Shown: positions 11,428-13,410, counted from the stretch's first letter. The stretch: 30,959 bases of DNA from a virus (IMGVR_UViG_2531839474_000010:1-30959); one strand, 5' to 3'. The notes: generated by a model from the letters alone, not told the origin. Made by a program: numbers and translations.

Positions 11428-12101
11428 AAAACATCGCCGCACAGATGGTTAACTTTGACCGTGAGCAGATGCGCCGGATCGCCAACAATATGCTGGAACA
11501 GTACGACGAAAAGCCGCAGGTACAGCAGGTAGCGCAGATCATCAACGGTGTGTTCAGCCAGTTACTGGCAACTTTCCCTGCGAGCCTGGCTAACCGGGAT
11601 CAGAACGAACTGAACGAAATCCGCCGCCAGTGGGTTCTGGCTTTCCGGGAAAACGGGATCACCACAATGGAACAGGTTAACGCAGGAATGCGCGTAGCCC
11701 GTCGGCAGAATCGACCATTCCTGCCATCACCCGGGCAGTTTGTTGCATGGTGCCGGGAAGAAGCATCCGTTATCGCCGGACTGCCAAACGTCAGCGAGCT
11801 GGTTGATATGGTTTACGAGTATTGCCGGAAGCGAGGCCTGTATCCGGATGCGGAGTCTTATCCGTGGAAATCAAACGCGCACTACTGGCTGGTTACCAAC
11901 CTGTATCAGAACATGCGGGCCAATGCGCTTACTGATGCGGAATTACGCCGTAAGGCCGCAGATGAGCTTGTCCATATGACTGCGAGAATTAACCGTGGTG
12001 AGGCGATCCCTGAACCAGTAAAACAACTTCCTGTCATGGGCGGTAGACCTCTAAATCGTGCACAGGCTCTGGCGAAGATCGCAGAAATCAAAGCTAAGTG
12101 A
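11424..12101 (+). CDS. P: Replication protein P (lambda P-like), 225 aa; 3' end truncated by the IS, with the stop codon supplied by the first three IS bases
   Basis: Translation MKNIAAQMVNFDREQMRRIANNMLEQYDEKPQVQQVAQIINGVF... matches recalled lambda P up to ...AKIAEIKAK; the TGA at 12099..12101 is the start of the IS left inverted repeat. Confidence 0.88.
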   Translation: MKNIAAQMVNFDREQMRRIANNMLEQYDEKPQVQQVAQIINGVFSQLLATFPASLANRDQNELNEIRRQWVLAFRENGITTMEQVNAGMRVARRQNRPFLPSPGQFVAWCREEASVIAGLPNVSELVDMVYEYCRKRGLYPDAESYPWKSNAHYWLVTNLYQNMRANALTDAELRRKAADELVHMTARINRGEAIPEPVKQLPVMGGRPLNRAQALAKIAEIKAK

Positions 12102-12152
12102 ACCGCCCCGGGAATCCTGGAGACTAAACTCCCTGAGAAAGAGGTAAACAGG

Positions 12153-12479
12153 ATGACTAAAAATACACGTTTTTCCCCCGAGGTCCGTCAACGGGCAGTT
12201 CGTATGGTTCTGGAAAGTCAGGGCGAATATGACTCACAATGGGCGGCAATTTGTTCCATTGCCCCAAAGATTGGCTGTACACCAGAGACTCTGCGTGTGT
12301 GGGTTCGTCAGCATGAGCGGGATACCGGGAGTGGTGATGGTGGACTCACCACCGCTGAACGTCAGCGTCTGAAAGAGCTGGAACGTGAAAATCGTGAACT
12401 GCGCCGCAGTAACGATATCCTTCGCCAGGCTTCCGCTTATTTTGCGAAGGCGGAGTTCGACCGCCTCTGGAAAAAATAA
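12153..12479 (+). CDS. IS3-family transposase OrfA (HTH), 108 aa
   Basis: Translation [35 protein letters not shown]... recognised as IS629-type OrfA; ends in an A6 run (12471..12476) that is the likely -1 frameshift window into OrfB. Confidence 0.88.
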
Positions 12480-13366
12480 TGCCGCTGCTGGATAAGCTGC
12501 GTGAGCAGTACGGGGTCGGACCGGTATGCAGTGAACTGCATATTGCCCCGTCAACGTATTACCACTGTCAGCAACAGCGACATCATCCTGATAAACGCAG
12601 TGCCCGTGCTCAGCGCGATGACTGGCTGAAGAGAGAGATACAGCGCGTATACGATGAAAATCATCAGGTGTACGGTGTGCGTAAAGTCTGGCGCCAGTTG
12701 TTACGCGAAGGTATCAGGGTGGCCAGATGTACAGTGGCGCGCCTCATGGCGGTTATGGGACTTGCCGGTGTTCTCCGGGGTAAAAAGGTCCGTACTACCG
12801 TCAGCCGGAAAGCCGTTTCCGCAGGCGACCGCGTAAACCGTCAGTTCGTGGCAGAACGTCCTGACCAGCTGTGGGTGGCTGATTTTACTTACGTCAGCAC
12901 ATGGCAGGGCTTCGTCTATGTGGCGTTCATCATTGATGTGTTTGCCGGATGTATCGTGGGGTGGCGAGTCTCATCGTCTATGGAAACGACATTCGTGCTG
13001 GATGCACTGGAGCAGGCGTTGTGGGCCCGTCGGCCGTCCGGCACAGTCCATCACAGTGATAAAGGTTCTCAGTATGTATCACTGGCCTATACGGAGCGAC
13101 TAAAAGAAGCAAAACTGCTGGCATCAACAGGGAGTACAGGTGACTCGTATGACAACGCGATGGCGGAGAGCATCAATGGTCTTTACAAAGCGGAGGTAAT
13201 ACACCGTAAGAGCTGGAAAAACCGTGCAGAAGTGGAACTGGCCACACTCACGTGGGTGGACTGGTATAACAATCGACGATTGCTGGGAAGGCTGGGTCAT
13301 ATCCCTCCGGCAGAAGCAGAAAAAGCTTATTATGCTTCCATCAGAAACGATGATCTGGCAGCCTGA
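12479..13366 (+). CDS. IS3-family transposase OrfB (DDE catalytic domain), 295 aa
   Basis: Translation [30 protein letters not shown]... with DDE-type integrase-core segments (WVADFTYV, HSDKGSQY); -1 frame relative to OrfA. Confidence 0.88.
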   Translation: MPLLDKLREQYGVGPVCSELHIAPSTYYHCQQQRHHPDKRSARAQRDDWLKREIQRVYDENHQVYGVRKVWRQLLREGIRVARCTVARLMAVMGLAGVLRGKKVRTTVSRKAVSAGDRVNRQFVAERPDQLWVADFTYVSTWQGFVYVAFIIDVFAGCIVGWRVSSSMETTFVLDALEQALWARRPSGTVHHSDKGSQYVSLAYTERLKEAKLLASTGSTGDSYDNAMAESINGLYKAEVIHRKSWKNRAEVELATLTWVDWYNNRRLLGRLGHIPPAEAEKAYYASIRNDDLAA

Positions 13367-13410
13367 GTTCACAGATAAAACACTCTCCAGGAAAACCGGG
13401 GCGGTTCAGT

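Follow-up and report, generated by a model that had tools for sequence, protein, structure and literature searches.

An IS629-like element at the edge of an apparent 8.9-kb deletion that removed the antiterminator and lysis genes of an SfV-like prophage in Escherichia coli M919

Introduction

What became of the genes that join the replication region to the terminase region in a prophage of Escherichia coli M919, and what part did the insertion sequence (IS) found in their place have in the loss? We address these questions with the window, by which we mean the whole stretch of 30,959 bp that was analysed (IMGVR_UViG_2531839474_000010). A preliminary description of this DNA, made from the sequence alone, proposed that an IS629-like element marks a deletion junction at which the 3' end of gene P, the nin region, the antiterminator gene Q and the lysis cassette are missing. 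Our comparison with related prophages and phages points to a history of two steps in the M919 chromosome, namely the insertion of the IS into P and then an IS-anchored deletion of about 8.9 kb, and we give this history a probability of roughly 0.8.

Comparison with related prophages

The prophage lies at thrW/proA, where a tRNA-Thr(CGT) gene (1369-1444) adjoins the integrase gene (1459-2622). It has the hallmarks of an SfV-like prophage, with a P27-family small terminase gene (terS), terL, an HK97-type portal, protease and capsid, a tail sheath and tube, and integration at thrW. Its terminase region is 96-98% identical to those of SfV, SfII, SfIV, SfI and SKA5. A prophage of E. coli G1/2, which is also found at thrW/proA, is collinear with the window on both arms and forms one prophage. 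The matching segments of the window are the following.

1-3759: 99.4% identity to G1/2
4311-6747: 98.0% identity to G1/2
9871-12099: 97.3% identity to G1/2
13407-30000: 99.976% identity to G1/2
29277-30959: 100% identity to G1/2

Between the points that match window positions 12099 and 13407, G1/2 has 8855 bp (L001:6144-14998). The first part of this block contains the P 3' end, ren, four small genes, an Ea22-like gene, ybcN, ninE, ybcO, rusA and ylcG. The second part contains quuD (antiterminator Q), a gene for an OmpC-like porin, essD (holin), rrrD (lysozyme), rzpD (Rz) and iss, and it ends 157 nt into an HNH endonuclease gene. In the window these 8855 bp are replaced by the IS, and the losses proposed earlier are borne out. 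The preliminary description had called for an alignment with intact relatives of this kind; G1/2 provides a collinear one, and phage SKA5 has the canonical gene order of Q, lysis genes, HNH, terS and terL.

It had also stated that no Q, holin, endolysin or spanin gene lies between P and the terminase, and that such genes elsewhere in the prophage would speak against its reading. We found none. The Q, holin, endolysin and Rz proteins of three related prophages or phages gave no tblastn match anywhere in the 30,959-bp window, and no other Q or lysis candidates were seen in the gene calls and Pfam hits of the source contig or in the annotation of the G1/2 prophage. The late-gene circuit of lambdoid phages, with Q, holin, endolysin and spanin genes placed between the replication genes and the terminase, is not present in the window. 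G1/2 is 100% identical to the window over the window's last 1.7 kb, and the part of its prophage that follows is also free of Q and lysis genes.

The late genes that remain have the same lengths as their G1/2 counterparts, with 4 mismatches in 16.6 kb. A cI-type repressor gene and a SIR2-like gene are both found in the window, in agreement with the earlier view that immunity and the SIR2-like cargo are kept. The 194-aa baseplate protein, looked up for the right end of the M919 prophage, is too widespread to be of use (27,633 blocks), and the matches listed for it did not include M919.

The insertion sequence

The element and its parts are as follows.

12099-13408, + strand: intact IS3-family element of the IS629/IS1203 group, 1310 bp, in the orientation of the pR and late operons
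12099-12123, + strand: left terminal inverted repeat, TGAACCGCCCCGGGAATCCTGGAGA, found by repeat pairing
12153-12479, + strand: orfA, 108 aa, HTH_Tnp_1 (gene call and Pfam)
12434-12550, + strand: ALIL frameshift pseudoknot where orfA and orfB overlap (Rfam RF01497, 120.9 bits, E 3.8e-32)
12479-13366, + strand: orfB, 295 aa, HTH_21 and rve DDE integrase core (rve/rve_3; gene call and Pfam)
13384-13408, + strand: right terminal inverted repeat, TCTCCAGGAAAACCGGGGCGGTTCA (...GGTTCA), complete through its last base

The preliminary description had placed the element exactly, and the repeats, both reading frames and the pseudoknot were all found. The terminal inverted repeats of 25 nt are complementary at 22 of 25 positions and have the form TGAACC...GGTTCA. 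With 1310 bp the element falls within the 1.2-1.5 kb of IS3-family elements with TG...CA inverted repeats. It also has the overlapping orfA (HTH) and orfB (DDE rve) of this family together with the signal for a programmed -1 frameshift, which the ALIL pseudoknot stimulates in IS3-family elements (Rfam RF01497). orfB scores 312 bits against a cutoff of 160 bits for NCBIfam transpos_IS3, and the cutoff for ALIL in Rfam is 50 bits. The 3-4 bp target duplication of the family is not found at the window copy, as had been noted before, since the flanking bases are AAG on the left and GTA on the right. We take this absence as the mark of a rearrangement and not as an argument against IS3 membership.

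For the naming of the element, the ISfinder isoform criterion is an identity of about 95% or more at the nucleotide level, and here the comparison was made with PGAP-named IS1203 copies instead, which have equal length and 95.5% identity. The label that PGAP gives to the window-type variant is only 'IS3 family transposase'. As IS1203v and IS629 are treated as one element (bioRxiv 10.1101/2023.06.07.543989), this match in length and identity suggests that 'IS629-like' would be a fair label.

Copies with 0 mismatches to the window IS are present in other E. coli genomes, and in several other E. coli genomes the window-type IS, at 0-5 mismatches, is found in multiple copies. The ECO2947 copy, with 1 mismatch, has an intact frameshifted transposase in its PGAP annotation. 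A target duplication is found for five of ten sampled other copies of this variant and is absent for the other five, which suggests that copies without a duplication are common and that IS-associated rearrangements may be frequent. When orfB was used to look for further copies in M919, the strain was not among the matches listed.

The left junction

The left end of the IS lies in the replication gene P.

11424-12101, + strand: truncated replication gene P, 225 codons, with the stop codon TGA (12099-12101) from the IS left end

The proposal that the IS supplies the stop codon of a P gene truncated at codon 225, out of a full length of 233 aa, is correct. The last residues of the truncated P are ...AEIKAK, after which comes the TGA formed by the first 3 nt of the IS. 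Intact relatives of P have 233 aa and the C-terminal end ...AEIKAKFGLKGASV, and residues 226-233 (FGLKGASV) are missing from the window P. The truncated protein nevertheless matches the full model of Pfam Phage_lambda_P (PF06992; 209 bits, 1-162/162), and its gene is found directly 3' of O (PF04492) with an ATGA overlap. The C-terminal lasso (lambda residues 193-233) is incomplete, as the window P stops at residue 225. In lambda P the lasso helix that binds DnaB consists of residues 211-227 (PMC12661323), and by this numbering the truncation would clip only 2 helix residues and the six-residue tail. The suggestion that the prophage is possibly unable to replicate normally therefore appears weak, because the truncated P keeps the whole Pfam domain and the same truncation is found in two other prophages.

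A search of P alleles gave a normal length of 232-237 aa, with the 225-aa and 233-aa forms merged by the clustering at 90%. The exact 225-aa protein was found only in GCA_000261145.1 (scaffold JH659569.1, E. coli M919) and in Logan assemblies of M919 reads. We found no published work on the M919 assembly, scaffold or run accessions.

The right junction

The right end of the IS lies in the HNH endonuclease gene upstream of the terminase genes.

13409-13602, + strand: terminase-associated HNH endonuclease gene, of which codons 53-116 of 116 remain (HNH Pfam PF01844, 61.7 bits, model 1-47/47)
13603-13727, + strand: HNH-terS intergenic region, where the deposited genome starts of SfII, SfV/SfIV and SfI map at about 13603, 13661 and 13679
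13728-14222, + strand: P27-family small terminase subunit gene (terS), the first intact late gene past the junction

The last base of the IS abuts the second base of HNH codon 53. The preliminary description was right that the IS abuts the 3' part of an HNH gene; the two-thirds that it gave for this part is too high, since 194 of the 351 nt (55%) survive and the first 157 nt are gone. The remnant has a complete core and has lost the start codon, the ribosome-binding site and the N-terminal 52 aa, and its only in-frame start is a TTG at 13426. It is not the intact reading frame, with a beta-beta-alpha-metal core and directly upstream of cos and terS, that marks a terminase-associated HNH endonuclease with a role like that of HK97 gp74, although the core itself is present. 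The lost N-terminus carries zinc-ribbon-like CxxxxC and CxxH motifs. Motifs of the zinc-ribbon type have been described for terminase-linked HNH enzymes, and in a related enzyme the 61-aa HNH core alone was inactive (PMC3592412). The HNH protein beside the terminase stimulates cos cleavage in HK97, as reported in PMC9410871 with reference to Kala 2014. By analogy the truncation would be a further packaging defect, and we infer that the prophage lacks a working HNH nuclease for packaging. It probably still has its cos site, as the deposited genome starts of the related phages map in the gap between HNH and terS.

In the intact HNH gene the sequence CGGTTC, a 6-mer of the IS right terminus, occurs about 10 nt before the breakpoint. 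We considered it as a target resembling the inverted repeat and rejected it, as by our estimate such a match is within chance when all 6-mers of the repeat and both strands are counted.

The same insertion in other genomes

Two other complete E. coli genomes have an IS629-type element that interrupts P at precisely this nucleotide and points the same way. These are 61_150228 (NZ_AP026099.1, L005), with a lambda-like prophage at icd, and 23CRST038 (NZ_AP045810.1, L006), with a lambda-like prophage at ybhC. At the shared site the P sequence abutted by the IS629-group end is ...AAAGCNAAG. In these two genomes the IS stands between two copies of AAG; the P 3' end, TTCGGACTGAAAGGAGCAAGTGTATGA, comes next, and ren follows. 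They are identical to the window in insertion nucleotide, orientation, left junction and 225-aa P. They differ from it in that the AAG duplication, the P 3' end, ren, nin, Q and the lysis genes are kept, and in that the window prophage is SfV-like and lies at thrW. 61_150228 has a second, identical IS1203 copy downstream of bor, in direct orientation to the one in P, with ren, nin, Q and the lysis genes between them.

As the other two genomes have the same junction with an AAG duplication, the left junction of the window is a normal insertion junction, and only the right flank of the IS has been replaced. It follows that the rearrangement would have begun at the right IS terminus and extended over about 8.9 kb to the right. 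On both sides of the IS the order and orientation of the prophage are kept, which argues for a deletion and not an inversion.

Three IS variants that are 4-5% divergent share this P nucleotide and orientation in the prophages at thrW, icd and ybhC, and the P alleles of the window and of 61_150228 each have a closer relative that is free of the IS. The differences between the window IS and the other P-resident copies are evenly spread, with no signal of chimerism. Ten further genomes have such an IS 150-450 bp downstream, within or just past ren.

The whole arrangement was absent from 5,426 complete E. coli genomes. The right junction was found in none of these genomes and not in IMG/VR, the GTDB species representatives or the JGI metagenomes. 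The left junction was likewise not found in IMG/VR, the species representatives or the metagenomes, and occurred in only the two complete E. coli genomes described above. A simple insertion of the IS into the HNH gene was seen in 0 of the 1,105 complete genomes that have this HNH-terminase region. With the exact 225-aa P found only in M919 and its read sets, and the right junction and the arrangement in 0 of 5,426 genomes, the deletion event appears to be private to M919.

Discussion

Under the two-step history, an element of the IS629/IS1203 group would first have inserted into P after codon 225, with the usual 3-bp duplication of AAG. A deletion anchored exactly on the right IS terminus would then have removed the duplicated AAG and about 8.9 kb downstream and left the IS complete. 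The losses of this second step would comprise the P 3' end, ren, nin, Q with the late promoter, the porin moron, holin, endolysin, Rz, iss/bor and 157 nt from the 5' end of HNH. The IS is kept through its last base, which suggests that the event either involved the IS end or used the entire IS for homology, and was not a random illegitimate recombination. The deletion is probably recent, given that the late genes match those of G1/2 in length and differ from them at so few positions. The preliminary description had named an IS-mediated deletion or a recombination between IS copies as the cause. The 8855 bp replaced relative to G1/2 support this pair of explanations, and both mechanisms remain live.

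For the second step we prefer one transposase-dependent event, by which an end of the IS would have been joined to a nearby off-target site, and we would give even odds to such an adjacent deletion by 'sloppy strand transfer' or stimulated by IEE. Adjacent deletions of IS629 vary in size between a few nt and more than 40 kb, depend on the transposase and on IEE, and have been explained by the strand transfer of one IS end off-target, according to the accounts in PMC9943667 and bioRxiv 10.1101/2023.06.07.543989, which both cite Kusumoto 2011. [quoted passage not shown] The IS629/IS1203 deletions of EHEC O157 and STEC (Ooka 2009 and Kusumoto 2011, as described in the same two papers) resemble our case in the IS group, the 1310 bp and the termini of the element. 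They are also alike in an IS kept to its exact end, in a prophage as the target and in the size of the deletion, which falls in the reported range. The differences are that M919 is not an O157 strain and that its IS variant is 4-5% divergent from the O157-type copy. We prefer the transposase route on parsimony, as an IS at this HNH position was found in none of the collections searched.

The final sequence would be the same if RecA-dependent recombination had taken place between the copy in P and a directly repeated copy in HNH, the latter with a GTA duplication, so that 8.9 kb and one IS were looped out. The two identical direct copies in 61_150228 demonstrate that such a substrate exists in nature. 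The window IS variant is multi-copy in several genomes, half of its sampled copies have no target duplication, and local reinsertion is common for copy-out-paste-in elements. This route needs three events instead of two, however, and no IS was found at the HNH site in the 5,426 E. coli genomes, IMG/VR, the species representatives or the JGI metagenomes. The window IS also gives no sign of chimerism, though recombination between identical copies would leave no trace of this kind. We consider the recombination route a live option that is possible but on balance unlikely.

An assembly artefact would require that insertions in P and in HNH are both real, and that their repeats were collapsed and the 8.9-kb segment between them was skipped. 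The source is a draft scaffold of the 2012 era (GCA_000261145.1), and the two junctions are joined through a single IS in that assembly alone. An independent Logan contig of SRR314710 (L004) confirms the left junction only, as it ends 24 nt into the IS, which shows that the IS is repeated in the M919 genome. Against this, the window contains no N, the IS is contiguous with both flanks, and assemblers seldom skip 8.9 kb of unique sequence. A real rearrangement would account for the missing AAG duplication, but so would two junctions that came from different IS copies. Taken together we regard an artefact as very improbable. Hardly credible is a hybrid of an early left arm and an SfV-like late right arm from two prophages, joined via IS copies by an inversion or a large deletion: identity to G1/2 is uneven (left 97-99%, right 99.98%) and prophage-mediated inversions are documented in EHEC (PMC7430833), but G1/2 has both arms in one thrW/proA prophage in the same order and orientation (integrase end 99.4%, tail-fibre end 100%), and uneven identity is normal lambdoid mosaicism, with only the Dam region, the SIR2 gene and cI/cro replaced in the left arm.

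With regard to function, the gene content indicates that the prophage would keep int/xis, recombination genes, the cI-type repressor, the SIR2-like gene, O, a near-full-length P and an undamaged head-tail operon. The loss of Q and the late promoter would remove the normal route of late transcription, and the loss of holin, endolysin and Rz would remove lysis. With a functional HNH protein missing as well, we infer that the prophage has no self-sufficient lytic cycle and is locked in the chromosome. A co-resident helper prophage could supply Q, lysis and HNH functions in trans. The late operon is now found about 4 kb downstream of a pR-like promoter (9554-9582) in the same orientation. A scan of the stretch from the IS to terS revealed no sigma-70-like site, and there is no strong terminator on the same strand. 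We therefore dropped the idea that a hybrid promoter of the IS and its flank drives the late genes. In an induced Stx phage the polarity of IS629 is incomplete (PMC7430833), and a read-through expression of the structural genes without lysis is conceivable.

SfV, SfII, SfIV, SfI, SKA5 and the G1/2 prophage share with the window the P27-family terS, terL, HK97-type head genes, a contractile Mu-like tail and thrW integration. Compared with these SfV-like phages, the window is without the nin-Q-lysis block and the HNH 5' end, and it has a SIR2-like (PDC-S25) gene between kil and cI. The K-12 cryptic prophages DLP12, Rac and Qin and the pool of defective prophages in O157 Sakai were likewise inactivated by IS insertions and internal deletions and have kept some modules. 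In contrast to them, the structural operon of the window is fully intact and the loss is confined to one block, which again suggests a recent event.

The recurrent insertion in P is the only mildly unexpected point of this case. The divergent IS variants in unrelated prophages, together with the closer IS-free relatives of the P alleles, are what would indicate a hotspot at this site. Only 8 residues of P are removed, and the insertion might be tolerated by viable phages. Tentatively, the nucleotide after codon 225 of lambdoid P may be a genuine insertion hotspot for the IS629 group, in which case lambdoid phages could spread IS629-type elements between strains that later seed deletions; we see this as an unlikely but possible scenario.

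IS629-group elements, their targeting of prophages and crippling deletions anchored on an IS are well documented, and our case adds no new principle. For annotation, it means that this prophage should be scored as defective despite a head-tail operon that looks complete. A candidate SIR2-type defence gene and the prophage repressor are still present in M919. The locus would be a clean and recent case of an IS anchoring the loss of exactly those modules through which a prophage endangers its host.

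Possible recurrent insertion of IS629-type elements

An IS629-group element sits at one and the same nucleotide of gene P, after codon 225, at the target AAG and in identical orientation, in three unrelated prophages, integrated at thrW, icd and ybhC respectively. The insertion sites are:

window (E. coli M919, thrW), 12096-12101
L005 (E. coli 61_150228, icd), 12148-12153 and 13458-13463
L006 (23CRST038, ybhC), 12148-12153 and 13458-13463

The three P-resident IS copies differ pairwise by 4.0-5.1%, and the P alleles of the window and of L005 each have a closer relative that is free of the IS (98.7% and 97.9%, respectively). 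Because of this divergence between the elements and the existence of closer IS-free P alleles, comparison of the sequences suggests that the site after codon 225 is a hotspot which has been hit independently.

In 10 further complete genomes (ECO2947, CFT073 and eight others) an IS629-type element is found in or just past ren, 150-450 bp 3' of the P site. The E. coli ECO2947 copy differs from the IS of the window by a single nucleotide:

L019:14495-15804, IS629-type element inserted into the hairpin that follows ren, flanked by a GGCC duplication

The P-ren region appears to be a regional target of IS629-type elements.

We also sampled ten other genomic copies of the window's IS variant (L020-L029), each with 0-5 mismatches to it. 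A perfect 3-bp target duplication flanks five of them and none is present at the other five, several of which adjoin prophage or integrase remnants. Rearranged copies without a target duplication are therefore common for this IS variant.

Differences from the G1/2 prophage

Compared with the G1/2 prophage, the window carries two mosaic replacements, at 3760-4310 and 9368-9870. In the first, a methylase gene replaces the DUF1382 gene of G1/2:

3756-4313, minus strand, Dam-family methylase, 185 aa

In the second, the cI/cro allele differs from that of G1/2, with cI reaching only 88.8% identity across part of its length. The G1/2 prophage, though otherwise collinear, also lacks a gene that in the window separates kil from the cI-type repressor gene, where lambda has rexAB:

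7097-8704, minus strand, SIR2_2-domain protein, 535 aa

This protein is matched at 779 bits by PDC-S25, a PADLOC defence candidate, and only weakly by ThsA-type SIR2 models.

In G1/2 the 3' end of thrW recurs as a 64-bp copy about 41.6 kb from thrW (window 1399-1462 against L017:6820-6883, 96.9% identical), and this copy marks the attR of the G1/2 prophage region. The M919 counterpart of this copy would lie beyond the window.

Late operon after the deletion

With the deletion, the pR-like promoter and the cro-ydaT-O-P' operon are followed directly by the head-tail operon, which is co-oriented with them (9554-9582 through 13728). Since only the co-oriented IS separates the two operons, and a simple scan found no strong terminator on the operon strand, induction might lead to structural gene expression without any lysis function.
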